Assembly (NCBI GenBank): GCA_047602425.1
Contig: JASGHG010000001.1
Coordinates: forward strand, 928,001-992,000
DNA length: 64,000 nucleotides
Direction of reading: 5' to 3'
Source: Nibricoccus sp.
GTDB taxonomy: Bacteria; Verrucomicrobiota; Verrucomicrobiia; Opitutales; Opitutaceae
Under the pieces are notes generated by a model. That model had not been told where the DNA came from. It saw nothing but the letters and a program-made list of their open reading frames with translations, and did no database searches. The position numbers and the translations under genes are program-made. Numbering within the stretch: position 1 is the stretch's first letter; each line of letters starts with the position of its first letter. Shown here one piece after another: positions 13,943-35,983 of this stretch.

Positions 13943-13946
13943 AATG

Positions 13947-15276: not shown

Positions 15277-15801
15277 CTATTCCTTTTGGTTCTTTTGTTT
15301 GGTGAGAAGTTTCATTCCGCTCTCGGTGATCAAAATCTCCAGCGGGTCCTTGCGGTTCCAGAGCTTTTTATCAAGCGGGATGATCAGGCGGCGGGGATCG
15401 GCGTTGCCGGCCTGGTCGTTGGCGATACCGGGGAGATCGGCAAGGATGACCAGATGCGACACGCCCGACTTAAGCCAAACCTGCCAATGAGGATGTTCGC
15501 GGCTAACCACCAGTCGTGAAGGCAATCCCCGGCCAAACTGTGCGCAAAGATGCGAGTCATCACGGCGCAAGGGGTTGTCAGGCTGCCAGTAGTCCGTAAC
15601 CGAATACGAAGTCCACTTCGGTAAATCCGCCAGCGTATTGGCGCCAACCAAGTCAACTTGCAGTGACGTGTTCGTGAGCGCCGGATCGACCGTCAGACGC
15701 ACTTCAAAGGCGCGCGGCTTGACGGTGCTTGAAGCACAGCCGCCAAGGGCAATCAGCATCGTTGTGATCAGGGAAATGAGGAGACGTTGAGTGGATTTCA
15801 T
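15277..15801 (-). CDS. tssJ: TssJ-like T6SS outer-membrane lipoprotein
   Basis: Lipobox LGGC, 174 aa, SLQVDLV..LVILADL..RRLIIPL transthyretin-like pattern; only lipoprotein in the locus. Confidence 0.6.
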   Translation of the reverse strand: MKSTQRLLISLITTMLIALGGCASSTVKPRAFEVRLTVDPALTNTSLQVDLVGANTLADLPKWTSYSVTDYWQPDNPLRRDDSHLCAQFGRGLPSRLVVSREHPHWQVWLKSGVSHLVILADLPGIANDQAGNADPRRLIIPLDKKLWNRKDPLEILITESGMKLLTKQKNQKE

Positions 15802-15805: not shown

Positions 15806-17755
15806 TTAACGCAGACGTTGAATGACGCGGGCGACTTCGCGGTTAGCCAACCAATCGCTCAGGAGCAAACTGCGCGAATGCTGAATCAGGCGTTCGAGGT
15901 CTCGCAGCGGCTCGTCGTAGGTCTTGTGCAAGGGCAACTCGGTCGGATCGTTGAAATCGGGAGCGTGACTGAACACGCCTGCACCAGGAAAGAAACGAGC
16001 CAGCGTGGCCACCGCATCCCACCAAAGCTCCATCGGAACCCAGCGGTACCCCTCCTCAGGCGTCGCACAGCCATGCCCGTGGTGCTGCGGCCCGAGGGCG
16101 GCGTGCCAGCGAGCATCCGCCAAAGCGAGTTGCTGCGCACGCTGTGCGGCTGTCAGGCCATCCACCCGACCCATCGCACGCGCCAGGCTCAGAACTTCGT
16201 CAATCGATTCCGCGAGCGAGTGGCGCGCGTGGGTCAGCAGGATTCGCGTGCCGATGACCCCAAGCGAATACAAATCCTGCCGCGCTCCAAGATGAGCAAC
16301 CGTTTCAAATCGTACATTCCGGAATACGTGGCCCTCCATGCGGCTCAAGGTGGCGTGCACCGTGGCAGACCATGCTGACGGGAATGAACGAAACCGCCGT
16401 TCGTGCACGCTGAGTGCTTCAGCGGTATCGAGCTGTCCGTACACCGCCACCGAACCTTCGCCGACCATCGGCAACTCGAAACAAAGCAAATCGGAGTCCC
16501 GGACCGAAAGATATTCGTCGGTCGCAATCGTGGCTTCCAAGATAAACCGATCGGCTTCCGTAATCAGTTTCCGAATACGGAGTGCGCACTCGCCCTTGGC
16601 CTGCGGGGTACCGAGGGGGGCGCTGTAGATCATGGAGCGTGGTTCGGCTAGGCGTTGGAAACGGCGCTTCTCCGTCGCGGGCAGCGGGATGACACGGGCC
16701 AAGGAAGCGTCCACCAGTGAGGCGCGCGCCGTCCACAGGATTGGCAGTTCGGATGCCGGCGCCGCAAAATCCACCCTGAACGATGCAGACGAGAGTCCCA
16801 ACATCGGCATCTGAAGCGATTCCGTGCTGGCCTGCACTGCCTTCACGATTTGCGCAAAGAGCATCAGCTTGAGATGAAATGTTTCGAGAAACCGCCCGGC
16901 GAGGCCTCGCGTCGTCGGGATGAAAAAAGCCCCGCTTTGTTGCAATTGATCACAGGCATCCAGCGGCGGTTCGTTTGAAGGATCGACGAATACAAAAGGC
17001 GAACTGGTGTTATTTCGGCCCAAACCACGACCGCTGAGAAAATCGGCGTAGGTATCGAGGTCAAAGGGGGCATGACGTCGTATCAGCATGCGGCCCGCCT
17101 GCGGGTTAACAGCCAGCAGGCCATTGGCCGGGGCCGCCCATGACGGCACAGTTTGGATCAGGGCGGAATCCCCCGAAACCAAAAGAAAACCGTCCTGCGG
17201 CCGGCCCTTCCGCCACAAATACCGCGCAGCCGAACCAGCGTATGACGGTAATTTTTCGGCGCTCAAGGCGGCTTCGTTCGTGCACAGCTCGATGTCCGCA
17301 TATTCGCCCGAGGTTGGAGGCCAGGATTCGCTTCGCTCGACATCCAACCAGAGAGGTTGCGTCGCACTACATTCACAACCCGTGACCAGCACCTTGGCGC
17401 GATCGGTGAGCAACATGCTTTTCACCAAGGCGTCCCAGCGTGCATCGAGAGCTGCGTTGATGCAGTCAGAACCTATGCGTTGGTTGTGGGCGGGGTTTGG
17501 TGGAGTTTGCAACCAAATCTCAAGCCACTCGCGCACAGCGCCGCCTCGGTCGATAAGCGCGGCCAGTAGCACACGCACGTCCACACAAGTTCTAAGCAAG
17601 ACCGGCGCCCACGGCTCTTCGTCCGCGCTGCGCGAAAGGGCAAGATGCACTTCCAGCCACGCGCCTCCGTTTCTCAGCGGAATAAATCGCAAGTCATGGC
17701 GCTCTCCGAGCGGGCTTACGGGGGAAGCGAGGCGAAATTGGCCGTCGAGAATCAT
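15806..17755 (-). CDS. T6SS-associated protein with degenerate protein-kinase-like motifs (pseudokinase candidate)
   Basis: PMLGLSSASFRV (catalytic-loop position), LVDAS, IYSAP, QDLYSLGVIG in kinase order; no HRD or DFG. Confidence 0.5.
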   Translation of the reverse strand: MILDGQFRLASPVSPLGERHDLRFIPLRNGGAWLEVHLALSRSADEEPWAPVLLRTCVDVRVLLAALIDRGGAVREWLEIWLQTPPNPAHNQRIGSDCINAALDARWDALVKSMLLTDRAKVLVTGCECSATQPLWLDVERSESWPPTSGEYADIELCTNEAALSAEKLPSYAGSAARYLWRKGRPQDGFLLVSGDSALIQTVPSWAAPANGLLAVNPQAGRMLIRRHAPFDLDTYADFLSGRGLGRNNTSSPFVFVDPSNEPPLDACDQLQQSGAFFIPTTRGLAGRFLETFHLKLMLFAQIVKAVQASTESLQMPMLGLSSASFRVDFAAPASELPILWTARASLVDASLARVIPLPATEKRRFQRLAEPRSMIYSAPLGTPQAKGECALRIRKLITEADRFILEATIATDEYLSVRDSDLLCFELPMVGEGSVAVYGQLDTAEALSVHERRFRSFPSAWSATVHATLSRMEGHVFRNVRFETVAHLGARQDLYSLGVIGTRILLTHARHSLAESIDEVLSLARAMGRVDGLTAAQRAQQLALADARWHAALGPQHHGHGCATPEEGYRWVPMELWWDAVATLARFFPGAGVFSHAPDFNDPTELPLHKTYDEPLRDLERLIQHSRSLLLSDWLANREVARVIQRLR

Positions 17756-17764
17756 GGGGCAAAA

Positions 17765-18475
17765 TCAGCGGGTGAGTAAAAAAGCTGCGGCAATCCCGAT
17801 CCATGCGGTGATACCAAAACCAAGGGGCTTTCCCCAATCCGTCCGCCAGGCGGCCTCGAAAGTCCGCGCGTTTAGAAAATTTCGATGCGGAATTGCGCCC
17901 GTGAAGCACCAACCGATAAAAAGAGCCACGTACCCAATTCCCCAATACAGCAGGGGTCCACAGGGAATCGCCGCAAAATACAATGAAAGGGCTGCCACGA
18001 CCGCCAAGGTCCAGACTGCGATCCAGAACCACGAAATACCTCTCCAAACGGTCTCGGATGTCGCGCGATGATTTTGCGCCATCAACACCGAACCCATCAG
18101 GGGCGTAAAAAAGACCGACAGGCCAAAATACATCGCGGGTGACCAGATCGAGATGCGCGGTCGGTGATCCGGCTGCGCCCAAAATGACAGCGTGCCCGGC
18201 GTACCGGCACTACGGTTGGGCGAGTTCGGGTCTTTCCTTGGCTCCAGCAACTGGGTTTGGTTTGTCGAGCCATTGGCAAGTCGCGTCTTGGGTGTCGCCG
18301 GGACAATCACTCCGGGCAAATCCTTCACTTTTTCCCAACGGGGCATGCCCTTGACCCAGTATTGATCGTCGGGCATCACTTCACCGCTGGCGAGGCCTAG
18401 GTTCACTTCGGAAAGCGACATCGGACGCGAAGATTGGCCGGGAGTCGCAATTTGGTATTTTCCTGAATTCAACAT
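17765..18475 (-). CDS. GYF_2 (DUF4339) domain membrane protein
   Basis: GEVMPDDQYWVKGMPRWEKVKDLP; about four C-terminal TM segments. Confidence 0.75.
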   Translation of the reverse strand: MLNSGKYQIATPGQSSRPMSLSEVNLGLASGEVMPDDQYWVKGMPRWEKVKDLPGVIVPATPKTRLANGSTNQTQLLEPRKDPNSPNRSAGTPGTLSFWAQPDHRPRISIWSPAMYFGLSVFFTPLMGSVLMAQNHRATSETVWRGISWFWIAVWTLAVVAALSLYFAAIPCGPLLYWGIGYVALFIGWCFTGAIPHRNFLNARTFEAAWRTDWGKPLGFGITAWIGIAAAFLLTR

Positions 18476-18490
18476 GAGGGAAGTGGTTTT

Positions 18491-19639
18491 TTAATCGCCG
18501 GCAAAAACGGGGAACGATCGCGCCTTCGATGCGCCAAAAAGCCGCCAAAACAAGCCCTTGCCGCTGGCGCGGGCGCCGTCGAGCCGAACCAACGCTTCAG
18601 ACAAATTTTTCAAGGACAGTTGTCCGTTGAAAAGCGAAGTTTGCGGGATCTGATGATTGGCAAGTTCAGTCAATTTCTGTGTGAGCAAAGGTTCGAGGCG
18701 CGGAATCGGTTTTCTCGATTGGTCCGTCACGAGTGGAATGTGACGGCAGCCGGCGCGCATCCTGAACATATCGCCACCGCCAGGCTGTCCGACCATGAAG
18801 TCCGCCCACGAGCCACCCGTCGGCATGATGGCCAACAGCGGCACCCCCGGATCTAATTCGCTCAACAGAAGCGCAGACCAGGCATTGATCGTCGCCGCCA
18901 CCGAATTATTGATCGCAGGCAAACGCATGCCCTGGGCACGTGGGGCCTGGGAAAGCGACTTGTAGTTCAAAATGCCGGGCGCGAAGGGACTGAAACGTTC
19001 CACGATGTCGTGGTAAACCGGATACAACAGCAGGCCGTCTTCACGGATCCGTTGCGACATGACGTCAAGGCCCGTCGTGCCAAGAAATCCAGCCGCATCG
19101 CGGACGGAAGAATCGGGATGCGCGTTGCGGAGGTTGTCCAGCGTCTCAGTGACCGTCGAAATGACGCGCCCCGAGGTCGTCGCCGCTTTCAGGGCGGAAA
19201 ACAAGTACTCGAACATGGGCATCACCGAACTCCAAACCCAGCTCAGGGGTAAATCGACCATGTGCGCGCAGAGAACCATCGGATAGAGGCTGCGCCCCTT
19301 GCCGTCTTTCGACGACGAAATGTAACCGAGCAGGCATTCCCGCGGCCGCAACCAGAGGAACCAGTGATCAAATTCCGGAAGGCGGTCCGCCGCCGGAAGC
19401 TTTTCCCACGTCTGCGCCTCGATTTCCGCACGAATCCCCTGCTGGTAGAGAATTTGTTTAGCGATTACAAGTGATTCGGTTTCCAGTCCAAAATCGAAAT
19501 GATCGTTCCATCCGGGGTGCTTGCCAAAGGCCCCCAGATAGATGCGCGGTCCGGCCGGGCGGTCCGACCAGTCTTCATTCAGGAAATCAGCGAGAAATTT
19601 CATTTTATCACGCGTGGTCGCTTCCGTGGTTAGGGCCAT
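18491..19639 (-). CDS. tagF: TagF-like T6SS regulator
   Basis: AFGKHPGWNDH and SSKDGKGRSLYPMV match TagF GK and SxDxxGRxYP motifs; directly after tssM. Confidence 0.72.
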   Translation of the reverse strand: MALTTEATTRDKMKFLADFLNEDWSDRPAGPRIYLGAFGKHPGWNDHFDFGLETESLVIAKQILYQQGIRAEIEAQTWEKLPAADRLPEFDHWFLWLRPRECLLGYISSSKDGKGRSLYPMVLCAHMVDLPLSWVWSSVMPMFEYLFSALKAATTSGRVISTVTETLDNLRNAHPDSSVRDAAGFLGTTGLDVMSQRIREDGLLLYPVYHDIVERFSPFAPGILNYKSLSQAPRAQGMRLPAINNSVAATINAWSALLLSELDPGVPLLAIMPTGGSWADFMVGQPGGGDMFRMRAGCRHIPLVTDQSRKPIPRLEPLLTQKLTELANHQIPQTSLFNGQLSLKNLSEALVRLDGARASGKGLFWRLFGASKARSFPVFAGD

Positions 19640-22600
19640 TGATCAACCGGGGGAATCGGCTGTTCGAATTGAAGGGTCAAAACGAAGTAGCTGCGTGTTT
19701 CGCCCGTTGCTACCTCGATGGGGCAAAGCCAGGTCTTGCCTCCGTCCGTTGCCAGGCAGTTTTTCTCCTGGGCGATCAGGCGCAAAGGACCCCAGGATCC
19801 TGTGACCGCCGCACGCGCATCCGCCTTGGGTTTTGTTTCAGCACCGACGAAGAACTCGCATTCCGGCAAGGCTTCCGAACCCAGGATCGCAGTGATGTCC
19901 GAGGCCGTGGCGACTTGGGTTCGCACCGCTTTGCTACCCAGCCTCAGGGTGCGGAAGCGATTACCCGCAAATGCGTCCGCAAAGGACAAACTCGGGGCAA
20001 TTTTCTCCAACAACCGTCTCTGATCGGTAAGGCTGGCGACGCCGATCTTCACCGTGCAACCCAGTCCGCTTGGTTTTGCAACATTGCGAACGAAATCCGT
20101 AACCTGGCTGATGCGCGCGGCAAGCCGTGTGTAGGCGGTTTTCGCCGATTCGGGAACGCTTTCAACCTTGCCGTCGGCAACGGCGTTCTGGAGGTCCGCA
20201 TACAACTCACGCATTTGAGCTTCCTTCATTCCGCCAGCTCCGCGAATGACCGGAAAACCAGCTTTGTTAACCAGCAACTGCTCAAGTTCGCGGGAGTATT
20301 TTTCCACAAGATTAACCGGACCCGAAATGCTTGAGCGCTTCTGAAGCAATCCGGCGGCGCGCATGAACTCGGAGCGCAGTTCGCCCTCGTATTTCATGGT
20401 CCGGGCGTTGATGGCGCTCAAGGCGGCCTGCTGTTCAGAAAAGGCGGCGCCAAGGCGGCCGAGCAGATTCGCCGTGCTCTCGGTGCGCACGTACATCTGC
20501 GCCAGCCAATCCCGATACACTCCAAACCGGTAAGAATAAACGCGGTCCGAGGTACCGGCGGCCGGCACCGTGGCCTCCATGTCCAGCTTGGGGATGCTGC
20601 TCATTTCGCCAGGGGTGAGCGATTGTTGGTAGGCCTCGTCAATGGTTCGGTCGACCTCGGCAAGACGGCGTCGAATCTCGATGAAGAGTGGTAGATCGGG
20701 CGGCCGGGGGGATTTCTTTTCCAAACCGGCGGGATCGACGCAAGCCGCGGCAATCGAACGGGCGGCGGCGCGGCTGCGTTCACGCGCGTGTTCGAACATC
20801 GCTTGGTACGCGCTCTTCAGCGTGAAAAGACTGGAGGGCATACCGTCGAGCGCGGCGGTGCGATTCAACATTTCCTCAACTGTGCTGCGGCTGGCCGCCA
20901 TCGCGTCATAAGCGGTATCCACTTCCAACTGCCAGCGTTCGTTATCCACAGCGCTGTGCACGGCGCGAAGGAAGTCGCGCTCACGGGACAAGTGATGCTC
21001 AACGGCCAGACGCGTGTTACGGATCAAATCCACGCCCATTTGCTGGTCGGCGCGCACATTGCGCACGGCATTCGTGAACGTGCTCCAGCCTTGTTCCAGC
21101 GGACGGTTTTCCTCGAAGGACCGCCCGGCCGACAGCCATTGCAAAGGCCAGGGATTTCTTCCGGATTGCAATGTCGCGTCGAAAACGCGCGCGAGTTCAT
21201 GCGGTACAGGTTTGAGCCCAAGCCAGGGTTGCAGCGCAGCGTGGAAGAAATGTCCCGGATCGGTCCGTTGCTCAACGCCCACCAATTTCCCAGTGCTGTT
21301 GCGTTGGTTGATCATGCCTTCGAGCTTGAGAAGAAAGGCCATGCGGCTGGCGTTGATGTCGTCCCAGCCCACGTTTACATCGAGCAGAGTTTCACGCATG
21401 GAGGTAATGAGTGGTTCCACCACGCTGCGTTCATACACCACGCGTTGTGCCTGCCGTCGCATGGTATCCAAACCCACGACCATGTTTTCCATCGGCTTGA
21501 AAACCCACGGCACAGACATGTCTTTGCTCGCGAGTTTTTCGAGTTCGTCGTGGAAATTGACGACCGTGCACGACTTTCCGCCCACCTTGACGAGGTCGTC
21601 ACCCGTGTAGCGCCATTCTCCCGGAGTCTTTGAGGGTTCGACGATCGGGTGCCAGCGGGCGCCGGTCCATCCGCTGGCCGCCGTCTGCCAGTAGTCGAGT
21701 TCGGAACCGACGCTGTTTTTCAAGGCCGATGTGCCAATCCAAGAAACGAGCATGAGCAGCGCCAACCCTGCCGCAGCAATAGTGCCGAGAATCGTGTAAC
21801 GACGACGCATGATAGCGCGTGTATCCGACGCGTCGGTGACGAGGCCTTTTTCGCAAAAGATCTTTTGCATGAAAACGTCACGCAGGAAAAACGAGCGGTT
21901 TCTGTCCCAAGCTTTTTGTTCGGGAAGATGATCGACCGGAATGCCAAGCGCGCTGGCCAGTTCGACATCGAGCGCCTTGCCCTCGATAAGAGCGGAGGTA
22001 AAATAGATTCCGCGCAGGAAAAGCGGCTTTTGTGTCCATTCACCGGATACAAAAACAACATCAAGATACTGTTTCAGCCGGGGCGCGATCGCTCCCACGC
22101 TGGCGGGAAAATCGAAGAACGAATCCACCTCGTCGATACGACGGCCTCCGGTGGTGGCCGGTACCGGGTCCCGCATCAGGAGCAAGCGGCGCTTGCGCAA
22201 ACGGGCGGTCACGGAATCGATGAACGAGGTCACCAGATCGGGCCGGAAGGGAACATCCAGTGGCTCGGGATTCGACCAACCCAGCATCTGCTGCTGCATC
22301 TGCTGATCGTTGATGTTGGCGAAAAATTCGCGGAAGCCGTAAATCAAATCGCATTTCGTGATCAGCACGAAAACAGGAAAACGAACATCCAGGACCTTCT
22401 GAATTTGTTCCAGCTGGCGGACGATGCGACCCGCCTTGCGTTGAATCTCGTCCGAGCTGTCCTTCAACAAACTTTCGGCCGGGATGACCAGGAGCAGTCC
22501 GTTGATCGGGCAATTTTTGCGATGCGTTTTCAGCAGCTTGAGGAATTCCGTCCATTCCGAAGTTCCTCCAGGCTGCGCCTCGTGGAAAAGCATTTTGCCC

Positions 22601-23109
22601 GCGGTATCCAGGAGAACGGCATGATTGGTAAACCACCAATGCATGTTGATTGTACCGCCCACGCCTTGCATCTCGTCTTGCAATCCCGGGGGAAAACCGA
22701 CGCTGCTATGGCGAATGGTTTCGGTTTTTCCCGAACCTGGTTCTCCGCAAACCAAATACCAAGGCAAGCTGTAGAGGTCTTTGCCCGCATCGTTGAAAGC
22801 TTTCAGTCCTTTTTCGAAAACTTCGCGCAAATCCGCCAGTCGCGCCCGCTGCGAGGGATCCGAGATCGAGCCCGTCAAACTGTTGGCTCGGTCGAGTCCT
22901 GTGCTGAAGGCCTGGCTGGCTTGTTTGGTTTTCCAACGTCGATAGAGGAAAAAGCCACCTGCCAGAAGGCCAACAAAGACAAGCGCGCCCAAGACGAACC
23001 AAACCGCCCTGAAATCGATCAGTGCGACGATGCCGAGCACGATGAGCACCGCGACCACGATGATCAGAATTCTAAGACCCAAGGGGAGACGTAACCATTT
23101 TTGCCACAT
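19630..23109 (-). CDS. tssM: T6SS membrane complex protein TssM/IcmF
   Basis: Two N-terminal TMs, LPWYLVCGEPGSGKT, WWFTNHAVLLDTAG, ITKCDL..GF.EFF, LRGIYFTSA, third TM. Confidence 0.92.
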   Translation of the reverse strand: MWQKWLRLPLGLRILIIVVAVLIVLGIVALIDFRAVWFVLGALVFVGLLAGGFFLYRRWKTKQASQAFSTGLDRANSLTGSISDPSQRARLADLREVFEKGLKAFNDAGKDLYSLPWYLVCGEPGSGKTETIRHSSVGFPPGLQDEMQGVGGTINMHWWFTNHAVLLDTAGKMLFHEAQPGGTSEWTEFLKLLKTHRKNCPINGLLLVIPAESLLKDSSDEIQRKAGRIVRQLEQIQKVLDVRFPVFVLITKCDLIYGFREFFANINDQQMQQQMLGWSNPEPLDVPFRPDLVTSFIDSVTARLRKRRLLLMRDPVPATTGGRRIDEVDSFFDFPASVGAIAPRLKQYLDVVFVSGEWTQKPLFLRGIYFTSALIEGKALDVELASALGIPVDHLPEQKAWDRNRSFFLRDVFMQKIFCEKGLVTDASDTRAIMRRRYTILGTIAAAGLALLMLVSWIGTSALKNSVGSELDYWQTAASGWTGARWHPIVEPSKTPGEWRYTGDDLVKVGGKSCTVVNFHDELEKLASKDMSVPWVFKPMENMVVGLDTMRRQAQRVVYERSVVEPLITSMRETLLDVNVGWDDINASRMAFLLKLEGMINQRNSTGKLVGVEQRTDPGHFFHAALQPWLGLKPVPHELARVFDATLQSGRNPWPLQWLSAGRSFEENRPLEQGWSTFTNAVRNVRADQQMGVDLIRNTRLAVEHHLSRERDFLRAVHSAVDNERWQLEVDTAYDAMAASRSTVEEMLNRTAALDGMPSSLFTLKSAYQAMFEHARERSRAAARSIAAACVDPAGLEKKSPRPPDLPLFIEIRRRLAEVDRTIDEAYQQSLTPGEMSSIPKLDMEATVPAAGTSDRVYSYRFGVYRDWLAQMYVRTESTANLLGRLGAAFSEQQAALSAINARTMKYEGELRSEFMRAAGLLQKRSSISGPVNLVEKYSRELEQLLVNKAGFPVIRGAGGMKEAQMRELYADLQNAVADGKVESVPESAKTAYTRLAARISQVTDFVRNVAKPSGLGCTVKIGVASLTDQRRLLEKIAPSLSFADAFAGNRFRTLRLGSKAVRTQVATASDITAILGSEALPECEFFVGAETKPKADARAAVTGSWGPLRLIAQEKNCLATDGGKTWLCPIEVATGETRSYFVLTLQFEQPIPPVDQWP

Positions 23110-23123
23110 GGAAAATCCTTTGT

Positions 23124-23828
23124 TCAGCGTTGCGCGCCCTTACGGCTTTGATCGTGTTCCACGATCGTGTTTAGCGCATCGTGAATATCGGTCGATGAAC
23201 GCTTGAAGAGATAGAAGTTCAATCCGCCGACCAGCACGACCAGCCCCACAATGATGAGCACCAAAGGTGTCACACTTTCGCTTACCGGTAGAGGCAAGTT
23301 CGTCGTGTCCGTATGCCGGTAGGCGTCGGGAGTAACGAGGGTTTGTTCATCCGGTTCGATGTAGTTCGTGATGCGCTGGGCCACCTGACGCATTTTCTTC
23401 CTCAAATACTCCGGCTGCAGCTGGTACCAGCCGGTAAAACCGAGACCGATGCATGTATAAAACACGGCGAGGCGCTCTTCCGCGTCCGCACCTTGTTGCG
23501 CAAGATTTTCATCGATGATGTCGAAGAATTTTTCGTCGCCCGCGAGTTCGTTGCGCTCGTAGGCGAGACGTTTTTGGTTCCATTGCGCGGCAAACGGCAG
23601 GGAACTCTCGGCGATCAGGGAATCGACGAAAAAGATAAGGGCTAGTTCGACCTTTTTATATTGCTCGGCCAGGCCCGGACTTTCGCGTGAGGCGGCGGCG
23701 GCTTTGGCAAGCAACTCCCGGACTTCCGTCCGCACGATATCGTGGTCGGTGGGCTGCCCCGAGCGTGCCAGCCGGTTGAGGCGGCATACATAGTTGAACA
23801 GAGGTTCACAAAGTTCGATCAGTGTCAT
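23124..23828 (-). CDS. tssL: T6SS TssL/DotU protein (no OmpA extension)
   Basis: ALIFFVD, AGDEKFF, VFYTCIGLGFTGWY, C-terminal TM. Confidence 0.9.
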   Translation of the reverse strand: MTLIELCEPLFNYVCRLNRLARSGQPTDHDIVRTEVRELLAKAAAASRESPGLAEQYKKVELALIFFVDSLIAESSLPFAAQWNQKRLAYERNELAGDEKFFDIIDENLAQQGADAEERLAVFYTCIGLGFTGWYQLQPEYLRKKMRQVAQRITNYIEPDEQTLVTPDAYRHTDTTNLPLPVSESVTPLVLIIVGLVVLVGGLNFYLFKRSSTDIHDALNTIVEHDQSRKGAQR

Positions 23829-23843
23829 GGCGATAAGCGCTGG

Positions 23844-25205
23844 TTATCCGGCTATGGTCATGTAGAGGGTTACCTGGAGGTCCGAGGCCGCCATGTTGGG
23901 CCACCGGACGATGACCGATTTCTCGGCCTGAATTTGCTGCCAGATGCGTGCACTGTCCGACCGGATGCACCGGAAATAGGTCAATCCCGCCTGGGCCGGC
24001 AATTGCAGCGGCGCCACCCTCTCCTCCTTCAACAGCATGCCACGCACCGCGCGATTCGCCAGGCTGCGAGGCATGAATTTGAATTGATCCGGATCCTCAA
24101 CGAGCCGGATAACCTCGCGCGGGTCCTGTTTCGATTTGATCGCAAGGTAGTATTCGATCGGGCGCGTGAGGTGCTCTTCGCTGAGCACCGTGGCGAGATG
24201 GGTTTCTTCGGTGGTAAACTCGAGCCGGAGGAAGCTCGCACCGCCCGCGTTCTTCAACAAAGCCCGCGTGCGAACATCGATATCGTTGAACGAGCGCGCG
24301 AGTTCGTCGTGGTCGTAGTAAGCCGCCTCGTAATCGGCGCGCTCAGGATGCAGCGCGGTCAGCTCCGCATAGAGACTGCGCAGTTCGAGGTGCCAGGAAA
24401 ATGGCGAAACTCTCCCCATCTCCAAAAGCGCGTTAAGCCGGGCGATCCCGCGGCGCAGCGTGCGCAGGCGCAGCAGTTGTTCGAATTGTATTCCTCGCAT
24501 CGTGTCCACGGCGAAACCGCCACGAGTCAGCACAACGGCAAGTTCCTTGCTGCTGACTTCGATCTGGTTGACGAGATCCCGGACCTTCTTGTGAAGCAGC
24601 GGCGAGCTTTCGAGAAACAGGCAGGGCGGCACGAATTCAACGTCGATGCGCGGTGTGCCGAGATTTTCGCCCGCCACGCGCAAAATCCGGATAAGCGGAA
24701 TCGCCTCGATGTCCGAACGGTCCTCGCGCTCGGTGATCAGTCGCGCATTCAAGCGCCGCATGTAAACCGGTTTTGGGTTTTCGCCCGTGTTTTCGTCGAA
24801 CAGCGTCATTTCACGCGGCACATACGTCAACTTCACGCGAGGATCGACGTGCGCGCCGATTTCAAAGGCATTCGCGCGCTTTGACTGCCACAACGGAACG
24901 GCCAGCGAAATCAGAAACGAATTTTCGCCCGTCGCAAAAAGCGGTTTCAGATCGAGGTCCGGCAGATCGGCGTTTTCAAAAGCCGATACAACCAAACCAG
25001 ACGGCATCACCACTTTCAACTTTTCGAAACGCAACCGATAATTCGCGAGTTCGTCCTGGGAAACTTCGGTTTCCCAAATACCGTATGCTTTTGGCAGGCT
25101 CAAGCGTCGAACCTCGGCAATCTCATCCGACATGCCGTGCTGCAAGTGTTGCAGATGATGCGGAAGCAGGAAGAGACCTTCGTGCCAGTGAAGTTGTGGA
25201 CTCAT
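23844..25205 (-). CDS. tssK: T6SS baseplate TssK
   Basis: LHWHEGLFLLPHHLQ, MPSG, FVPPCL, YDHDEL..SF. Confidence 0.93.
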   Translation of the reverse strand: MSPQLHWHEGLFLLPHHLQHLQHGMSDEIAEVRRLSLPKAYGIWETEVSQDELANYRLRFEKLKVVMPSGLVVSAFENADLPDLDLKPLFATGENSFLISLAVPLWQSKRANAFEIGAHVDPRVKLTYVPREMTLFDENTGENPKPVYMRRLNARLITEREDRSDIEAIPLIRILRVAGENLGTPRIDVEFVPPCLFLESSPLLHKKVRDLVNQIEVSSKELAVVLTRGGFAVDTMRGIQFEQLLRLRTLRRGIARLNALLEMGRVSPFSWHLELRSLYAELTALHPERADYEAAYYDHDELARSFNDIDVRTRALLKNAGGASFLRLEFTTEETHLATVLSEEHLTRPIEYYLAIKSKQDPREVIRLVEDPDQFKFMPRSLANRAVRGMLLKEERVAPLQLPAQAGLTYFRCIRSDSARIWQQIQAEKSVIVRWPNMAASDLQVTLYMTIAG

Positions 25206-25249
25206 GTTTGGATGCGTTTAATTGTTTGTTTAAATTGGTTTTGTGATGC

Positions 25250-26185
25250 TCAACGGTTTTCGCCCCGGGCGAGCTCCTCGGTAAGCCGCACCAGATGCTC
25301 GCGGATGTCGGCTTCAATCGTCGCTTCAGTGAGTTGGGCGGTTCGCTCGGTATAACGCTGCCAGGCACGTGCCTCTGGATTACCGAACAACCCGGGCTTG
25401 CCCTCGGCGCGAACCACTTCGCGAATCGCGTCCGGCGAATAATGCGCTTGGTAGGTGTGCGCAAAACCGCGTCCCACCGCATCGAGCGAAGCCAGCAACG
25501 CAGAGAGCAACTGCCGTGTTTTTTCGATCTGTTGGTAAACTTGCGTGGACGACGATTCCATTTCCCCAACAAGCGACCGGCGCATCAAGATCCGCAGTTC
25601 TGGCACCATGTGATCGCGGCGCAGTCCGGATTTCGGCGCAATCGAGCGCCATACATTCCAAGTCAATTGATCCAAAATGCTCGCCATTTCCGCCAATAAA
25701 GCAAAGAGACGGCCCAGTCGTTGCGGATCGATTTTGTCCGAGGAATTCAGCTTCAGCCGACTCTGGATTTCCACCAACGCCTCCCCGTCGATCACGCGGC
25801 CGGTTTCTTTCACCAGGCCCGCTTTCGCCAGGCGGTCGGCAATGGTGGCACGACGCTCCGGCGTGAGCTGGGGAGCGACTGCACAAAGCGCCGTCACGAG
25901 TTCGTCGGGCGTCTGCGGTGTCGGGGCCGCACCCGCCGCGTCGAAACTCACGGTCGCCATTTGCCAGGTGGGAAACCGTTCGGCAAGTGCGTCGAGATAT
26001 CCGCGGCGCTTGTTGCCCGGTATGGGTTGCAGTGCACGAGAAATTTCCTCCCCCAACCGCGCTTCACGGGCTTCCACCGTTTCTTCCGCCAGTGATGCCT
26101 GAAGATACGACAAACGCTTCGCGAGCGCCTCGGCCCAAAGGCCGGCTTGCGTGTCGGATGAGATCGTAGAGGTGACGGCGCTCAT
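25250..26185 (-). CDS. TagH/Fha C-terminal-like protein lacking an FHA domain
   Basis: QLLSALLASL..YSPDAI..ARAWQRY resembles the Fha1/TagH C-terminus; ATGA overlap with clpV; sits upstream of tssK. Confidence 0.5.
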   Translation of the reverse strand: MSAVTSTISSDTQAGLWAEALAKRLSYLQASLAEETVEAREARLGEEISRALQPIPGNKRRGYLDALAERFPTWQMATVSFDAAGAAPTPQTPDELVTALCAVAPQLTPERRATIADRLAKAGLVKETGRVIDGEALVEIQSRLKLNSSDKIDPQRLGRLFALLAEMASILDQLTWNVWRSIAPKSGLRRDHMVPELRILMRRSLVGEMESSSTQVYQQIEKTRQLLSALLASLDAVGRGFAHTYQAHYSPDAIREVVRAEGKPGLFGNPEARAWQRYTERTAQLTEATIEADIREHLVRLTEELARGENR

Positions 26186-28872
26186 TTGTAGGAAAAAGTG
26201 AATTCGTTTTCGTTCGCGCTAAGCTGAACTTTTTTCAACGGGGTGCCGGTGCTGATCCGCGACAGGACTTCGCGTGCGATTTCGGGCAATATTTCCTGCG
26301 TGATCAGTCCCTCGACGATGCGGGCCCCGCGTTCGAGTTCGCCGCAGCGTTTGCCGATAAGCGTGAGCACATTCTTGTCATAGGTTAGCGGTATCCCGTG
26401 GTTCTCTTGAATACGCTTCCCCACGCGAACGAGGTTCAACTCGATGATCTTGTGCAACGTCGACTGGGAAATCGGCGCATAAGGCACCACCACGAGCCGG
26501 TTCAGCAATGCGTCCGGAAAAACTTTCATCAATGGCTGGCGCAGCGCTGACTCGATCGCCGCCTGCGTCGGCACGAGTTCTGGATCCTTGCAGAGGTTTA
26601 CGATCACATCCTGCGCCGTGTTGCTGGTCAGAAGGATGAGCGTGTTTTTAAAATCGATGAAGCGCCCCTCGGCATCCTCCATGAAACCTTTGTCGAAGAC
26701 CTGGAAGAAAATTTCGTGCACATCCGTGTGCGCTTTTTCAACCTCGTCGAGCAACACGACGCTGTAGGGCTGGCGACGGACGGCCTCGGTCAAAACGCCG
26801 CCTTCTCCGTAACCCACGTAACCCGGAGGCGATCCCTTGAGTGTGCTCACGGTGTGCGCCTCCTGGAATTCGCTCATGTTGATCGTGATGAGTTTTTGTT
26901 CACCGCCAAAAAGTGCCTCGGCCAGCGCCAGCGCGGTCTCGGTCTTTCCCGTACCACTCGGTCCCACCAGCATAAAAACTCCTACCGGACGGTTCGGGTT
27001 GTCGAGTTTTGCGCGGCTGCTCTGGATGCGGCGCACAATGGTTTCCAGCGCGGACCGCTGGCCCAATACGCGTTGCTCCAGCGTTTCCGTCAGACGCAGC
27101 ACGCGCTCCACTTCGTTTTTGACCATGCGGCCCACCGGAATGCCCGTCCAGTCTGCCACCACATCGGCAATGGCGAATTGGTCAACTTGCGGCCAGATCA
27201 TCGGCGACTCGCCTTGAAGTTTTTGCAGTTCGGCGCGAAGCGACAAAATATCGCCTTGGGAGCCAGCGGATTTTTTCTGCGCTTTTGTCGCTTTGCCGCG
27301 CTTGGCTGGAGCGATCACTGCAGCAGCCGGCGCAGCGGTCGTCAGGGAGCCAGCGTTCTGGACCGTCAACAACCGGTCGACCAGCGTCTTCTCTTGCCGC
27401 CAGCGGGACTCAATCTTCTCCAGTTCCTGTTTTGCCTCTTTTAATTGGAACTCCAGTTTTCCGCGGCGCTCGGAGTTCTCCCGGGCTTCGCCGGCTTCCC
27501 GTTTTAGAAACGCCAGCTCTGTATTGAGCAATTCGATACGCCGCTTCGCGCTGTCCAATGCGGCAGGGACCGCCTGCTGGCTGAGCGCAACACGTGCGCA
27601 AGCGGTGTCGATCAAACCCACCGCCTTGTCGGGCAATTGCCGCGCAGTGATGTAACGATGCGAAAACCGGACCGCCGCTTCAATCGCTTCATCGAGAATG
27701 CGAACCTTGTGATGCTTCTCAAAATTGAGAGCGACATTGCGCATCATCTGCACGCACTTTTCCTCGCTGGGTTCTTCAACTTTTACGATTTGGAATCTGC
27801 GTGTAAGCGCCGGATCTTTTTCAATGTGCCGCTTATATTCCTGCCACGTGGTCGCTGCGATCGTGCGCAACGAACCGCGTGCGAGCGCCGGCTTCAATAA
27901 GTTCGCGGCGTCGCCCGTGCCCGCGCTGCCTCCGGCACCGATCAAAGTGTGAGCCTCATCGATAAACAAAATGATCGGTTGCGGCGAGGCCTGTACTTCG
28001 TCGATGACGCTGCGCAGCCGTTGTTCGAATTCGCCCTTCATGCTCGCGCCTGCCTGAAGCAGGCCGACGTCGAGTCCGCAAATTCGCACGTCCTTCAGTG
28101 ATGGAGGAACATCGCCCGCCACCACGCGCAAGGCAAGCCCTTCCACCACCGCCGTCTTTCCTACACCAGCCTCTCCCGCCAAAATTGGATTATTCTGACG
28201 GCGGCGCATCAGGATATCCAGGCACAGGCGAATTTCCTCATCGCGACCGATGATCGGGTCGAGTTCGCCTTTGCGTGCCTTGTCCGTGATGTCGGTCGTG
28301 AAGCGTTTCAACGCTTCCTGCTTCGCGTTGCCGGACGGAACCGCCTGGCTGGCCACTCCGGGCGCCGCGCCCGACTGCGACGATGCCAGCCCGTTTTCCT
28401 TCGAACGTTGAAGAATTTTCGCAAATTCCTCCGCCAGCACGTCGGCTTTTATCCGGCCGAATTCGACCGATAGGCCGAGCAGTACGTTTTTCAGCGAAGG
28501 CGTTTTTAGAACGCCCAGCAGCACATGACCGGTACGGATCTGCAATTCGCCGAAAACCAGCGACGCATACGTCCATCCGTGTTCGACTGCTTCATCCAGA
28601 TGGGGTGAGAAATCTGCGATCGCCGTCGCGCCGCGCGGTAAGCAATCCAACGCTTGCGCGAGGTCTTCGTTCAAGCGCCCGAAGTCACAACCAAAATATC
28701 CCGCCACAATAAAAAAGTCCGTATCCGCAGCCGTCAGCATTTCCGCAACCCAATGCGCGAACTCCACGTAGGGATTTCCCCGCTTTTTGCAGAGTACCGT
28801 AGCCGACTCAATCAGCTTGAAGGCGACGGGGTTTAGCTTTCCGAAAAGTGTGGAGCGCTTGATTTCAGACAT
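26182..28872 (-). CDS. tssH: T6SS ATPase ClpV
   Basis: LFGKLN, RRRQNNPILAGEAGVGKT, GPSGTGKT, NMSEFQEAHTVSTLKGSPPGYVG. Confidence 0.97.
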   Translation of the reverse strand: MSEIKRSTLFGKLNPVAFKLIESATVLCKKRGNPYVEFAHWVAEMLTAADTDFFIVAGYFGCDFGRLNEDLAQALDCLPRGATAIADFSPHLDEAVEHGWTYASLVFGELQIRTGHVLLGVLKTPSLKNVLLGLSVEFGRIKADVLAEEFAKILQRSKENGLASSQSGAAPGVASQAVPSGNAKQEALKRFTTDITDKARKGELDPIIGRDEEIRLCLDILMRRRQNNPILAGEAGVGKTAVVEGLALRVVAGDVPPSLKDVRICGLDVGLLQAGASMKGEFEQRLRSVIDEVQASPQPIILFIDEAHTLIGAGGSAGTGDAANLLKPALARGSLRTIAATTWQEYKRHIEKDPALTRRFQIVKVEEPSEEKCVQMMRNVALNFEKHHKVRILDEAIEAAVRFSHRYITARQLPDKAVGLIDTACARVALSQQAVPAALDSAKRRIELLNTELAFLKREAGEARENSERRGKLEFQLKEAKQELEKIESRWRQEKTLVDRLLTVQNAGSLTTAAPAAAVIAPAKRGKATKAQKKSAGSQGDILSLRAELQKLQGESPMIWPQVDQFAIADVVADWTGIPVGRMVKNEVERVLRLTETLEQRVLGQRSALETIVRRIQSSRAKLDNPNRPVGVFMLVGPSGTGKTETALALAEALFGGEQKLITINMSEFQEAHTVSTLKGSPPGYVGYGEGGVLTEAVRRQPYSVVLLDEVEKAHTDVHEIFFQVFDKGFMEDAEGRFIDFKNTLILLTSNTAQDVIVNLCKDPELVPTQAAIESALRQPLMKVFPDALLNRLVVVPYAPISQSTLHKIIELNLVRVGKRIQENHGIPLTYDKNVLTLIGKRCGELERGARIVEGLITQEILPEIAREVLSRISTGTPLKKVQLSANENEFTFSYK

Positions 28873-28944
28873 GGAAATGGTGTGGCCGAAGGAAGGGATT
28901 CAAAAGGTTGGTTTGCCGTTTTTTTGTGGTTCCGTTTTTTGTTT

Positions 28945-29934
28945 TCACGCAGCGCGACTTTCGAAAACGACACGACGCAGTTCGTCTTTGGGCGAATCCT
29001 TACCGATCCAGCTGTTATATCCTAATTGGGAGCCATCGCCGAGCTGCACGGCGGGAATTCCCCTACTTTGCACATCGAAGGCGACATCCCAAAAGAAGGT
29101 TTCTCCCACGTAACTTTTCACCCAGCAGCAAAGCCGCTTGAAGGCAGTGCTCCCGGGCTGAAGTTTTTTAAACTGGCTGTAGGACAGCGGTCCCATCAAC
29201 ACGCGCAACGAAAGGCAACCGTCCCATACCGACTCGCCCAGAATCAACGATTCGCCCAGCAGGCCGCTCGAACGCGGTCCGGCTAGTCGCGAGCGGTTTT
29301 CCGGCGGAATTGTCAGCCAACGGCCTTGAAACGGCTGAATCTCGGCTTTGGTTTCGAAAAAATCCCCCAAAATTTTACCAAGGCCTTCGGAAGAACGCGT
29401 CCCGCGGCTCAGCCATCCTGAAAAGTAAAACCTTCCGTTATCAGGAAGTTCGTCGCGGTCCATCAAGCTGTCCTGGCCCTGCCCCACCAGGCTGGCGACA
29501 AAACGGCGGTAGTGACTTTCCTGCGGACGATCCATGTCCACCGCGATATTGTTGTCTGCCCAGGCCCGCGCGAGGAACGACATCATGCGGTGGTGAAACA
29601 GGTTTAAAAACTCCACCATTGTTTCATCTCGATGGTTGTGGAGCCTCTCGTACACGTATTCGGTGTAATTCGTCGGCAGCGGCCCGTTCACGCCGAGCAA
29701 GCCGTGGTAAGCGAGTTTAACTCGTGTCGGCCCGCCTTCCGCCGGCGTCTCCACTGCGTCGATTAAGGCGGTGGGAAATGTCAGCGACGGTGTCTGACCA
29801 AAACGTACGGGCTCGTCCTTCGGCAGGTTGGCGTAACCAATTCTCGGATACGCCACGCCATGACGCTGCAGCAGCCGTACGGCCTGAAAAAACTCGGTGC
29901 GCAGCAAGCTCTCCGATCCGGCTAAGCTCATCAC
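28945..29934 (-). CDS. tssG: T6SS baseplate TssG
   Basis: FFQAVRLL, GLLGVNGPLP, FLNLFHHR, LGYNSWIG. Confidence 0.93.
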   Translation of the reverse strand: MMSLAGSESLLRTEFFQAVRLLQRHGVAYPRIGYANLPKDEPVRFGQTPSLTFPTALIDAVETPAEGGPTRVKLAYHGLLGVNGPLPTNYTEYVYERLHNHRDETMVEFLNLFHHRMMSFLARAWADNNIAVDMDRPQESHYRRFVASLVGQGQDSLMDRDELPDNGRFYFSGWLSRGTRSSEGLGKILGDFFETKAEIQPFQGRWLTIPPENRSRLAGPRSSGLLGESLILGESVWDGCLSLRVLMGPLSYSQFKKLQPGSTAFKRLCCWVKSYVGETFFWDVAFDVQSRGIPAVQLGDGSQLGYNSWIGKDSPKDELRRVVFESRAA

Positions 29935-31829
29935 AACACCCCTTTCTGGCCGGTTCGCGCGGGCCAGCGCATGAGTTCACCGCGTTGCAACGTGGCCACA
30001 ACCGTCTCTGTGAAGGAATTTACCGTCACGTATTTTCCGAGGAAATATTCCAACACACCGCCAAACAGAAATACGCCCGCGCCTTCGAAACATGCTTCGT
30101 CAAAAGTCAGGATCACTTCCAGCCCGCGTGCAAAACACACCGGGCCCGGCGTAAAAATCCGGCGCAGGACCGGCCGGCTTTTAGCTTCGCGCAAACCTTC
30201 AATCTGACGGCGCCCCGCAGCCATCCGTTCTCCCTCGGCACAATAGAGCTCCAGCATCTCGCGCAAGGCCGCGGGGCCTTCGCCAGCCCGACCCTCCAAT
30301 AGCGAAAGATAGTTGAGCGAAAGGTGACTGATCAACTTCCACGCGAAATCTCCCTCGGCTTGTGAGGGCAGCGGCTCCGTGGGATGAACAAGACAGCGCG
30401 TCGCTGTCACTGGTACGCAAACTTCAAGCGTAAAGTCGGTCGAACCACCTCCAACCGCCATCATGGTCGGGAGATGACGATTTGTGCAGAGCGCTTCGAA
30501 GCCCAATTGCCGCAGGGTCGTGGCGACCGGCATATTTCTGCAATCGACGAGCGAGAGGTAGACATCGGTACCGGCACAAGCCGCGCGCTTGTTATGCTCC
30601 TTGAAATAGACTTCTTCCTCTTTCGTCGGCATGCGCGGCACCCGTTTGACGCTGTAAAATGCATCGGAGGCTCCGGTCTCGTGTTGCGTGTGAAAAAACG
30701 GCTTAAACTCCCGCGCCTCGGCCGACTCGGCGCCGTAACCCATGACTTTTTCAAACTCGAAAATCTCGTAATCCAACGGCCGGTTTTGATCCGGACACAC
30801 AAAAACTTCCGCCGCCCGGCCGTTCACCGGCAGACGATCCAGCTTCTGCGAAAACAAATTGATCGCCGGCGTACAGTGTAACTCGAACGAGGAGCTGTCG
30901 AAGCGGTTTTCCAACCGGCCTTCCACGGAGTCGAAAAGTATGGTGATATCGATTGTTTCGCTTTCGCAATTTTTGAGGGCCGATTGGAAACCGCCCAGTT
31001 CCACAAACAAAAATCTCTGCGGAAGCGCGAAATATTCGCGCAACAGCCGGTAGCCTTCAAAACCTCTCGGCGTCGACGGCAGCAATGCCTCCTTGGCCGA
31101 AAATCCCTTGCGCCGGACTCCCTCGCGTCCAAATACGCCGTGCGTGACGGGCCGTTCCCCCTTCTGCTGGGTTTGCACGACGATGGCCGTGGCGTGCCCA
31201 ATCAACAACTCGTAGAGAAGAAAAGGAATTTGGTCGCTTCCGTTCAGATGGATATCCAACGGATCCAGTTTGATCTTGGAGAATGGCAATCCGCCCCCTG
31301 AAGTCAGCCGAAGCCGTAGCGCCGACCGCGCGGAGAGATGCCCCGGCAGTTCCAGCGATGCAAGATTGCGCGTGAAGTATTGCGCCTCCGTCAGGCGAAC
31401 CGGAAGCAGACGGACATCGTGTGCGGTCGTGAAAACGCAACTCGTGCTCTCGCCGCGGGACCGCAGCGATTTCAAACGCGTGCCCCGCGCCAGCAAAACC
31501 CCATCCGCAAGCGCGGTATCCTGCCAGTCGGGATCGAACCGCACAATCGTCATCGATGGCATTGGCGCCAGAAATTGCGGGAAAACAATTTCGAAAAGCG
31601 ACTGCGTAAACCGCGGAAATTCAGCATCGAGTTGCAGATGGATACGTGCCGCCAACCAGGCAAAACCCTCCAAAAGTCGCTCAACATGCGGATCGGGACA
31701 GACCTCCTTGCCGTTCGGATCGAGCGCCAGCCGTGAGGCAATCTTCGGATACTCGCGCGCAAATTCCCCGGACATCTCCCTGAGATGCCGAAGTTCCGTG
31801 TTATAGTGCTCGAGTAGGCGTCGGTCCAT
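29931..31829 (-). CDS. tssF: T6SS baseplate TssF
   Basis: YNTELRHLRE, DPHVERLLEGFA, GYRLLREYF, CTPAINLF, LISHLSLNYLSL, NSFTE. Confidence 0.96.
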   Translation of the reverse strand: MDRRLLEHYNTELRHLREMSGEFAREYPKIASRLALDPNGKEVCPDPHVERLLEGFAWLAARIHLQLDAEFPRFTQSLFEIVFPQFLAPMPSMTIVRFDPDWQDTALADGVLLARGTRLKSLRSRGESTSCVFTTAHDVRLLPVRLTEAQYFTRNLASLELPGHLSARSALRLRLTSGGGLPFSKIKLDPLDIHLNGSDQIPFLLYELLIGHATAIVVQTQQKGERPVTHGVFGREGVRRKGFSAKEALLPSTPRGFEGYRLLREYFALPQRFLFVELGGFQSALKNCESETIDITILFDSVEGRLENRFDSSSFELHCTPAINLFSQKLDRLPVNGRAAEVFVCPDQNRPLDYEIFEFEKVMGYGAESAEAREFKPFFHTQHETGASDAFYSVKRVPRMPTKEEEVYFKEHNKRAACAGTDVYLSLVDCRNMPVATTLRQLGFEALCTNRHLPTMMAVGGGSTDFTLEVCVPVTATRCLVHPTEPLPSQAEGDFAWKLISHLSLNYLSLLEGRAGEGPAALREMLELYCAEGERMAAGRRQIEGLREAKSRPVLRRIFTPGPVCFARGLEVILTFDEACFEGAGVFLFGGVLEYFLGKYVTVNSFTETVVATLQRGELMRWPARTGQKGVL

Positions 31830-31973
31830 GTGCAGGTCAGTTCACGCCAAAATTTAAAGCAGGCCACCGTTCATCACAGGAACGTTCCGCACCATTCACG
31901 AACGATCCGATGTGAGCCGCAGTTCCATCAAACCGTTTTGGCGAGCCGAGTCGAAGTGTTGCCGGGACTTTCA

Positions 31974-32489: not shown

Positions 32490-32493
32490 CGTT

Positions 32494-33288: not shown

Positions 33289-33354
33289 TTGACAATAAAG
33301 TGCTGTGCCGCCACCCGCCGATGCAGGGAGCGGCACACGTTCAGAGGGCGCCGA

Positions 33355-33837: not shown

Positions 33838-33932
33838 ATTAGTTACTTTATGTGTTTAGTTCTGGTGCCGGTAGATTGAAGAGGCCATGCGCTACGGCAC
33901 CTCCTGCCATAGCCTCTGAGAATTCTGAGAAA

Positions 33933-35426: not shown

Positions 35427-35456
35427 AGTTTTGCGAGGCTCCTTTTTTGGTTCTCG

Positions 35457-35948: not shown

Positions 35949-35983
35949 ATATACCTTTCAGATTAGGGGTTATTAGAGAAATA

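Follow-up and report, generated by a model that had tools for sequence, protein, structure and literature searches.

How is the firing of a type VI secretion system (T6SS) controlled where the genes of the usual threonine-phosphorylation pathway are missing from its locus? The question is raised by a 64,000-nucleotide stretch of the genome of Nibricoccus sp. (assembly GCA_047602425.1, contig JASGHG010000001.1, positions 928,001 to 992,000; hereafter the window), which carries one complete minus-strand T6SS with tssA first and a PAAR-peptidase C39 gene last. Three products of this locus, namely a 649-amino acid (aa) soluble protein predicted to be a pseudokinase, a 311-aa putative relative of Fha/TagH without FHA domain (hereafter TagH-C) and TagF, belong to a T6SS accessory module that is real and previously undescribed. 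We lean towards the view that the pseudokinase and TagH-C form a two-part, phosphorylation-independent replacement of the Fha/TagH scaffold, with TagF as the likely brake. The initial annotation had described the order TagH-like gene, tssK-tssL-tssM-tagF, GYF_2 gene and pseudokinase-like gene, without PP2C phosphatase or TagQRST. The map of open reading frames (ORFs) and the Pfam and NCBIfam scans bear out this order, on the minus strand, and the 22 ORFs of the T6SS region (8675-37015) gave no Pfam match to the Pkinase, PP2C, FHA, FGE-sulfatase or ABC-transporter families. The genes from tssH to the 649-aa gene are spaced by overlaps or by gaps of 5-45 nt.

The 649-aa protein is encoded at 15806..17755 on the minus strand. 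Its homologues, 90 in one search and 483 representatives (50% identity) at E<=1e-30, together with distant subfamilies, add an unannotated family to the T6SS accessory proteins; close homologues with source names are Opitutaceae-type Verrucomicrobiota. Sequence-only searches of the family (Pfam, PDB sequences, plasmids) yielded nothing useful, and Pkinase is absent from the Pfam matches of 74 family members. An AlphaFold2 model of the protein (pLDDT 85.8, pTM 0.89) was searched by structure. Foldseek returned nothing at E<=0.001, and a beta insert of about 100 aa (387-486) in the C-lobe may account for the weak rows at its top, Sen1/Upf1 and flavin-reductase barrels. All 50 rows listed by VIA-align were protein kinases or pseudokinases, the best being the IRAK3 pseudokinase (Z 17.4, root-mean-square deviation 3.9, 265 aligned residues), and in an Atlas feature search kinase clusters ranked after the family's own cluster. 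The modelled kinase fold covers residues 25-631 of 649, and the protein has neither a transmembrane helix nor a periplasmic sensor domain, the only hydrophobic window (residue 50) being modelled as beta strands.

Catalytic motifs were placed by hhalign against distant relatives in which they are retained (P 100, E 1.4e-43). In the window protein the beta3 Lys is replaced by W81, the alphaC Glu by L110 and the HRD Asp by G320. The catalytic loop reads P317-M-L-G320-L-S-S-A-S325, with S322 and S325 in place of the loop Lys and Asn, and D349 occupies the DFG position. Residues were counted in 220 full-length members (length of at least 590 among P0001-P0235). The beta3 Lys is kept in none and is Trp in 179; the catalytic Asp is kept in three and is Asn in 186; the loop Lys is kept in none, the loop Asn in four and the DFG Asp in 79. 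The alphaC Glu is not conserved, and the complete catalytic set occurs in no member. At the HRD position the family motif is P-x-L-N/G-L, the window protein lacking the family Asn (G320). From the model and these aligned residues, the 649-aa protein is predicted to be a catalytically dead pseudokinase, in agreement with the pseudokinase-like label that it first received.

The 311-aa protein (25250..26185, minus strand) lies before tssK (23844..25205, minus strand; PF05936, TIGR03353), to which the TagH-C gene adjoins on the 5' side in the window and in most loci extending that far. A single-sequence comparison with TIGR03354 was weak (E 0.023). PF20232 (T6SS_FHA_C) matched 13 of 31 family members at E<=1, with a best E of 4.6e-4, below the cut-off, and hhalign of the family against four TagH C-domains gave P 95.4 (E 1.7e-8). 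An FHA hidden Markov model (HMM) matched none of 40 TagH-C ORFs, and FHA is also missing from the families matched by the 31 members. These comparisons suggest that the protein is a distant Fha/TagH C-terminal domain without FHA, in line with the FHA-less TagH-like protein first proposed. In the window it carries its own N-terminal helical part.

Downstream of tssL (23124..23828, minus strand; PF09850) and tssM (19630..23109, minus strand; PF14331, TIGR03348) lies the gene for a 382-aa protein (18491..19639, minus strand, counted from the first ATG; the same-genus orthologue begins at the equivalent of M12). Its annotation as TagF holds. The protein alone matched TIGR03373 weakly (E 0.021), PF09867 matches 6 of 14 family members, and the best PDB match of the family is 9t0n, a T6SS-associated protein (E 0.0035). 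Residues G39 K40, D46 and S110 D112 R116 P120 are invariant in 14/14 TagF-like members. They belong to GK and S-x-D-x3-R-x2-3-P loops whose spacing matches the TagF loops required for Fha binding (PMC5995506). No conserved D-x-W (D30/W32 in Pseudomonas aeruginosa TagF) was found at the expected distance in the family alignment, which does not include P. aeruginosa TagF itself. Because single-sequence HMM matches are weak, both the TagH and the TagF calls rest on family-level evidence. TagF without the phosphorylation pathway makes up 22% of 741 contexts (bioRxiv 10.64898/2025.12.08.692957). In five loci TagF continues into a transmembrane helix and a long tail in the periplasm (L046:18347-22099, L078:1-2046, L094:8614-12468, L100:7871-9970 and L103:4027-8490), with an FGE domain in L100 and L103; such proteins are membrane-anchored, possibly signal-receiving forms of TagF.

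Are these genes kept together elsewhere? Close relatives of the pseudokinase were sampled in at least 80 genome loci, a sample biased to the two motifs used and nearly all titled Verrucomicrobiota or Planctomycetota. Among the 80 listed, 55 have a core tss gene and 69 a core or module gene. The commonest order is pseudokinase - tssJ - large gene - tagH-C - tssK - tssL - tssM - tagF, so that the window shows a minority arrangement. Where there is room for the gene in question, tssJ follows the pseudokinase in 54/73 listed loci and a gene for 1,050-2,100 aa follows tssJ in 45/53. Kinase and FHA matches each occur in one of the 80 and PP2C in none. It could be argued that the T6SS secretes the 649-aa protein as an effector, or that the protein is a chaperone of effectors, since its gene often follows vgrG-effector-PAAR cassettes (PAAR directly upstream in 15/68 listed loci with room). 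Kinase-fold effectors exist. We consider this most improbable: the constant partner is the downstream tssJ or, in the delta-type loci described below, TagH-C, and not an immunity gene. The gene is also single-copy in its genome, and its conservation extends along the whole length, in contrast to the effector cassettes, which vary.

Genome samples point the same way. In 401 genomes of the window's phylum (Verrucomicrobiota), TssC was found in 19 and the pseudokinase in six, all among those 19. In 301 genomes of the phylum of G401 (Phycisphaerales), TssC was found in 69 and the pseudokinase profile matched 17, of which 16 are TssC-positive; five of the 17 are close-family members and 12 are distant. 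A broader profile matched 14 of the 68 second-sample genomes searched at E<=1e-100 (10 of them already in the alignment), with one partial match, and its weak matches lie in the catalytic-loop region, as expected of ordinary kinases. The further search took in 80 out of 88 genomes with TssC: 68 from the second sample and 12 pseudokinase-negative ones from the first. In each, the top 28-32 candidates were scored. Among the 68, full-length TagH-C and the large gene's product, a membrane pseudokinase, were found exactly in the five close-family carriers; among all 80, each was found in the same five and in G369, and G577 has a half-length TagH-C match. The pseudokinase-less loci of G028, G238, G049 and G274 have tssJ-tssK-tssL-tssM without TagH-C or TagF match. 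The pseudokinase and FHA-less TagH thus co-occur tightly in T6SSs of the Planctomycetota-Verrucomicrobiota-Chlamydiota (PVC) bacteria; no statistic is attached to the counts because the genomes are related and partly incomplete.

Several observations were made beside these counts. In G369 a 656-aa ORF before TagH-C was considered as a divergent pseudokinase and ruled out. The same genome (L141, 588-2333 and 8270-10240) encodes an HGN pseudokinase whose helical tail is repeat-like. It also encodes a protein in which STAS-like, transmembrane and OmpA-like parts can be made out by eye. In L013, L016, L021, L038 and L089, an additional, divergent tssC-like gene often adjoins the pseudokinase or stands at the operon edge. 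Many genomes of the Planctomycetota sample have 2-4 TssC matches each. Divergent T6SS-like clusters in L136, L138 and L140 (G274, G226) hold TssC, ORFs of about 1,200-1,300 aa and mostly unrecognised genes, without match to the window-type profiles. In G525, G604, G660, G701, G487, G464 and G557, open frames encoding about 325-340 aa lie roughly 10 kb from tssC; their match is confined to the end of the TagH-C profile, and they are possibly short TagH forms.

The large gene after tssJ in most relatives encodes a second pseudokinase, recognised by a kinase profile in a PDB search. Its motif is HGN in 36, HGA in five, HGD in three and HGR in two of 46 proteins, with no DFG, and a transmembrane helix is present in 40/43. 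An FGE-sulfatase C-terminus was found in three of four members scanned (E 1.3e-25, 2.5e-9 and 0.0026; none for L090); this is the family of TagR (PMC13713981). By sequence, this unannotated bitopic protein looks like a dead PpkA fused to TagR. In L035:12305-17464, for instance, an HGN-type pseudokinase is followed by a transmembrane helix, a long helical or PEGA periplasmic region and a TagR-like FGE-sulfatase end. Another locus (L022:12089-17116) has an intact Hanks kinase in front of the membrane pseudokinase, in a kinase-pseudokinase tandem. The initial annotation had matched the end of the window operon to the pppA/ppkA positions of H1-type loci. This match is not supported: tagF directly precedes the soluble pseudokinase in only 4/80 listed loci, that protein has no transmembrane or periplasmic part, and its relatives occupy the fha slot. 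The PpkA-shaped member of the module is the membrane pseudokinase, not the 649-aa protein. In the window's genome, tblastn and HMM searches for it gave only ordinary kinases and lone FGE proteins; with the membrane pseudokinase missing from this lineage, its T6SS is probably a reduced, more constitutive form.

Two further genes complete the operon end. A 174-aa lipoprotein (15277..15801, minus strand) lies just outside the range first annotated. Its Cys22 is invariant in 38/38 family members and its three best structural matches are TssJ (Z 11.6, 11.0 and 10.6; the next reaches 7.7). Comparison with the canonical TssJ profile was weak (P 34), PF12790 matched none of the 38 members, and Pfam and NCBIfam both missed the window gene; identity was settled by fold, and the locus is therefore not tssJ-less. 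In pseudokinase-less PVC loci tssJ directly precedes tssK. Standard HMMs miss tssJ and tagH in PVC genomes.

A 236-aa membrane protein (17765..18475, minus strand) matches GYF_2 (PF14237) at E 4.2e-5, with 23.7 bits against a Pfam cut-off of 25.8. The initial annotation had made it the membrane input of a three-part switch, with TagH-C and the pseudokinase, that replaced fha, pppA and ppkA. The gene does sit in the operon, 16 and 10 nt from its neighbours. It is kept in the same-genus genome G168 and lies beside the pseudokinase gene in L023 (opposite strand, 27% identity), and in a lineage without membrane pseudokinase it could serve as a local substitute. It was seen only in the window, G168 and L023, the count over the listed loci being 1/80, and a search of 151 order-level genomes returned only the window's genome and a 55-aa fragment. 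Several other loci without membrane pseudokinase after tssJ also lack it. The GYF_2 gene is a lineage-specific passenger rather than a conserved module member, and a three-part switch is very unlikely. What stands of the undescribed system first proposed is a conserved accessory module with the pseudokinase, FHA-less TagH and TagF; its neighbourhood joins the pseudokinase and TagH-C, and the proposed trio is not the module.

Which position of the classical locus does the soluble pseudokinase take? Distant relatives of the family keep the beta3 Lys in 61/75, together with CxxC motifs. Two keep HLDLKPxN; L207 and L204 keep VAIK-, HxDLKPxN- and DFG-like motifs. The distant genes head tssJ/tssK-L-M, before a full FHA+FHA_C TagH in L194 and L206 and before an FHA-less TagH-C in L197. 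In L205, pseudokinase, FHA and FHA_C (TagH-C) lie in one ORF, with no adjoining tss genes in the 20 kb seen. L205 alone is counted as a fusion because the C-terminal tails of L208, L203, L201 and L209 have no significant TagH-C match. The L197 type has 428 homologues, those named being Deltaproteobacteria, Desulfobacterales, Nitrospirota and Planctomycetia. In 80 such delta-type metagenome loci, an FHA-less TagH-C is encoded next in 54 of the 58 where a gene follows; the arrangement pseudokinase - tagH-C - tssJ - K - L - M - tagF hardly varies. At least two (D/E)T-hydrophobic-x-(I/L/V/M) motifs form an ETVIL-repeat tail in 109/120 delta-type relatives; no such repeated tail was found in the window pseudokinase or its TagH-C. 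FHA ligands have the form pT-x-x-I/L, which the delta-type ETVIL tails resemble. In a quick, midpoint-rooted tree of 50 rows, from which no direction of change can be inferred, the window-type family forms one side of a branch with support of 100. The window's branch is the most stripped form of the pseudokinase superfamily.

Phosphorylation might nevertheless persist, if TagH-C or TssL were marked by a kinase encoded at some other place in the genome, or by the 649-aa protein through atypical catalysis, and the mark were read without FHA. The genome of the window is a single contig (99.97% complete) with seven Pkinase and three PP2C matches, none inside the window. Intact motifs in L207 and L204, ETVIL repeats in delta-type relatives that sometimes neighbour a kinase, and the strongly conserved E79, Q83, D104, R106, N320 and D494 of the family, which could make an unusual site, would all fit such a scheme. 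Against it, FHA has no match genome-wide, and our own HMM of 30 FHA sequences, which recovered the FHA ORFs of control loci, found none in the six-frame ORFs at E<=10. Five of the seven kinases were inspected: they adjoin extracytoplasmic function (ECF)-type sigma factors, Ig/TPR genes, a nitrite-reductase operon or sigma-54, and no T6SS genes. Trp at the beta3 Lys position in most of the family and the loss of even the family Asn in the window protein add to this, and we judge residual phosphorylation improbable. The initial annotation had left room for control by fha, ppkA or pppA genes elsewhere: no FHA match was found in the genome, and although kinase and phosphatase genes do exist, the five kinases inspected are not by T6SS genes. 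Because no FHA domain was found in the genome, a canonical threonine-phosphorylation pathway could not be read through one. A lone FGE-sulfatase gene near one of the kinases (about 1.23 Mb) was considered as a displaced tagR and rejected, as it sits among pectate-lyase, glycosidase and ECF genes. FHA was matched neither here nor in G404, both Opitutaceae-type, the other PVC genomes tested having 4-20. The genome also holds a second contractile system, similar to extracellular contractile injection systems, at 4712001-4726000 (L299), with sheath, CIS tube, hub, spike and baseplate J genes.

The two-part Fha that we favour draws its support from the predicted fold, the dead site, the failure to find FHA in the genome, co-occurrence, the fha slot and the L205 fusion. 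The soluble pseudokinase would pair with the FHA-less TagH-C protein, and the pair, relying on protein contacts instead of phosphothreonine, would nucleate assembly of the T6SS at the TssJ-L-M complex. The pseudokinase may act as the membrane-complex adaptor, as does the N-terminal part of Fha in Vibrio, and TagH-C may oligomerise or condense and recruit the baseplate like the short Fha isoform. TagF would inhibit the TagH-C assembly step. In most close relatives, the membrane pseudokinase with its TagR-like periplasmic domain is the likely signal input.

Other findings weigh against this reading. The TagH-C homology is distant, hhalign against 52 delta-type TagH-C ORFs giving only P 59.7, and the four tails mentioned above gave P 4.7. 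Conserved loops do not prove that TagF binds Fha, and Acinetobacter baylyi TagF has the same loops yet binds Hcp (bioRxiv 10.64898/2025.12.08.692957). No T6SS or module gene was found in the flanks of 11/80 listed loci, four of these on 14-22 kb. Near the pseudokinases, an intact kinase is fused to the membrane pseudokinase in L022, a kinase adjoins the pseudokinase gene in G081 (L095) and two FHA ORFs directly follow tagF in G062 (L091). Kinase, PP2C and FHA matches lie near 12, 6 and 9 of the 80 delta-type loci, so that the superfamily as a whole is not phosphorylation-free. G369 has TagH-C and TagF but no soluble pseudokinase, and the genomes behind the co-occurrence counts are related and often incomplete.

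Some of these points suit another explanation, in which the T6SS fires constitutively without any switch, with the pseudokinase as its fixed structural adaptor and with TagF, as in Acinetobacter, as a spike-loading checkpoint on Hcp, independent of TagH-C. The window's genome lacks the only sensor-like member, the membrane pseudokinase; TagF is known from contexts without the phosphorylation pathway, and the A. baylyi protein, with the same loops, binds Hcp; and PAAR is the upstream neighbour in the loci counted above. This explanation has to account for the pseudokinase-less PVC T6SSs, which mostly lack TagH-C and TagF yet look complete, and for the membrane pseudokinase that follows tssJ in most relatives. 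Since the pseudokinase-less systems look complete, an optional control layer fits better than a core part, and a fixed adaptor seems to us a minor possibility compared with the two-part Fha.

It is tempting, if speculative, to extend the two-part Fha to a whole T6SS branch in PVC bacteria, Desulfobacterota and Nitrospirota gated by pseudokinases. In PVC bacteria the phospho-relay might have turned into a catalysis-free allosteric relay, from a periplasmic TagR-like domain through the membrane and soluble pseudokinases to an FHA-less TagH condensate, opposed by TagF. Intact-motif kinases, kinase-FHA-TagH fusions and ETVIL-tailed forms might then be living intermediates; if true, they document the path from a phosphorylation switch to a scaffold. 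The mechanism by which Fha/TagH triggers T6SS assembly was called unclear in a 2026 review (PMC13584744). The loci described here are a natural dissection, with the FHA domain gone, the C-terminal domain and TagF kept and a dead kinase in the slot, and thereby make the trigger question testable with three small soluble proteins.

The window's T6SS as a whole is ordered as follows: tssA-tssB-tssC-hcp-tagJ-tssE-tssF-tssG-tssH precede the 311-aa gene, tssK, tssL, tssM, the 382-, 236- and 649-aa genes and the lipoprotein, which are followed by a 436-aa ORF, Imm49, vgrG and PAAR. The upstream core (26182..37015, minus strand; tssH at 26182-28872) was assigned by Pfam and NCBIfam. The effector region (8675-15257) holds the unknown 436-aa ORF, the Imm49 gene, vgrG and the PAAR-peptidase C39 gene. 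A 381-aa gene of low GC (0.47), possibly for immunity, follows the PAAR fused to a peptidase C39-like domain. Outside the T6SS, 40857-42464 encodes a fusion of a FabH-like synthase III with biotin/lipoyl and E3-binding domains.

How does this module compare with known systems? Among the papers listed by searches of the literature outside subscription journals, none was found that deals with a pseudokinase of the T6SS or with the PVC layout described here. The available text of the 2026 accessory-factor review (PMC13584744) has no occurrence of pseudokinase, Planctomyc or Verrucomicrob, and that of a review of bacterial pseudokinases (PMC12599244) none of T6SS, Planctomyc or Verrucomicrob. Already published are TagF control that does not depend on phosphorylation, the occurrence of TagF without Fha, and an Fha isoform lacking FHA (PMC5995506, PMC13389060, bioRxiv 10.64898/2025.12.08.692957). 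The H1-T6SS of P. aeruginosa (TagQRST-PpkA/TagE-PppA/TagG-Fha1/TagH, TagF) shares with the window a TagF after tssM with GK and SDR loops and a TagH-derived protein ahead of tssK, and with the window's relatives a kinase-fold protein that is bitopic and an FGE-sulfatase domain, as in TagR (PMC13713981). Unlike it, the window locus lacks active kinase, PP2C, FHA and TagST, the kinase-fold proteins lack the catalytic residues, and the TagR-like domain of relatives is fused to the membrane pseudokinase or to TagF instead of being free. The soluble 650-aa pseudokinase has no counterpart there.

In Vibrio cholerae, the FHA-less isoform Fha-S condenses and binds TssE, and the N-terminal part of Fha binds TssL (PMC13389060). 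There, as proposed here, an FHA-less C-terminal Fha functions without the phosphorylation pathway; Fha-S is, however, an internal translation product beside full-length Fha and cannot start assembly alone according to the same text, whereas the window TagH-C, which has a helical N-terminal part of its own, is the sole form that the genome was found to encode. The TSA-type TagF context of Acinetobacter also has TagF without kinase, phosphatase or FHA and with conserved N-terminal loops (bioRxiv 10.64898/2025.12.08.692957). It is defined by tagN, tagX, tslA, tsmK and tagZ, whereas the window has TssJ, TagH-C and the pseudokinase; a Pfam scan, without direct comparison to the TSA genes, found no OmpA or peptidase match in the window's accessory ORFs.

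Among pseudokinases, the GLW type (PMC12599244) likewise has Leu/Trp at the beta3 Lys position, but the window family lacks both the GLW motif and a transmembrane segment after the kinase domain. [quoted passage not shown] YukC belongs to another secretion system and is a membrane protein binding FHA domains (PMC9600267), while the window protein is predicted to be soluble, has large inserts and is about three times as large as the pseudokinase domain of YukC. After T7SSb, the T6SS seems to be a second secretion system in which pseudokinases serve as hubs.

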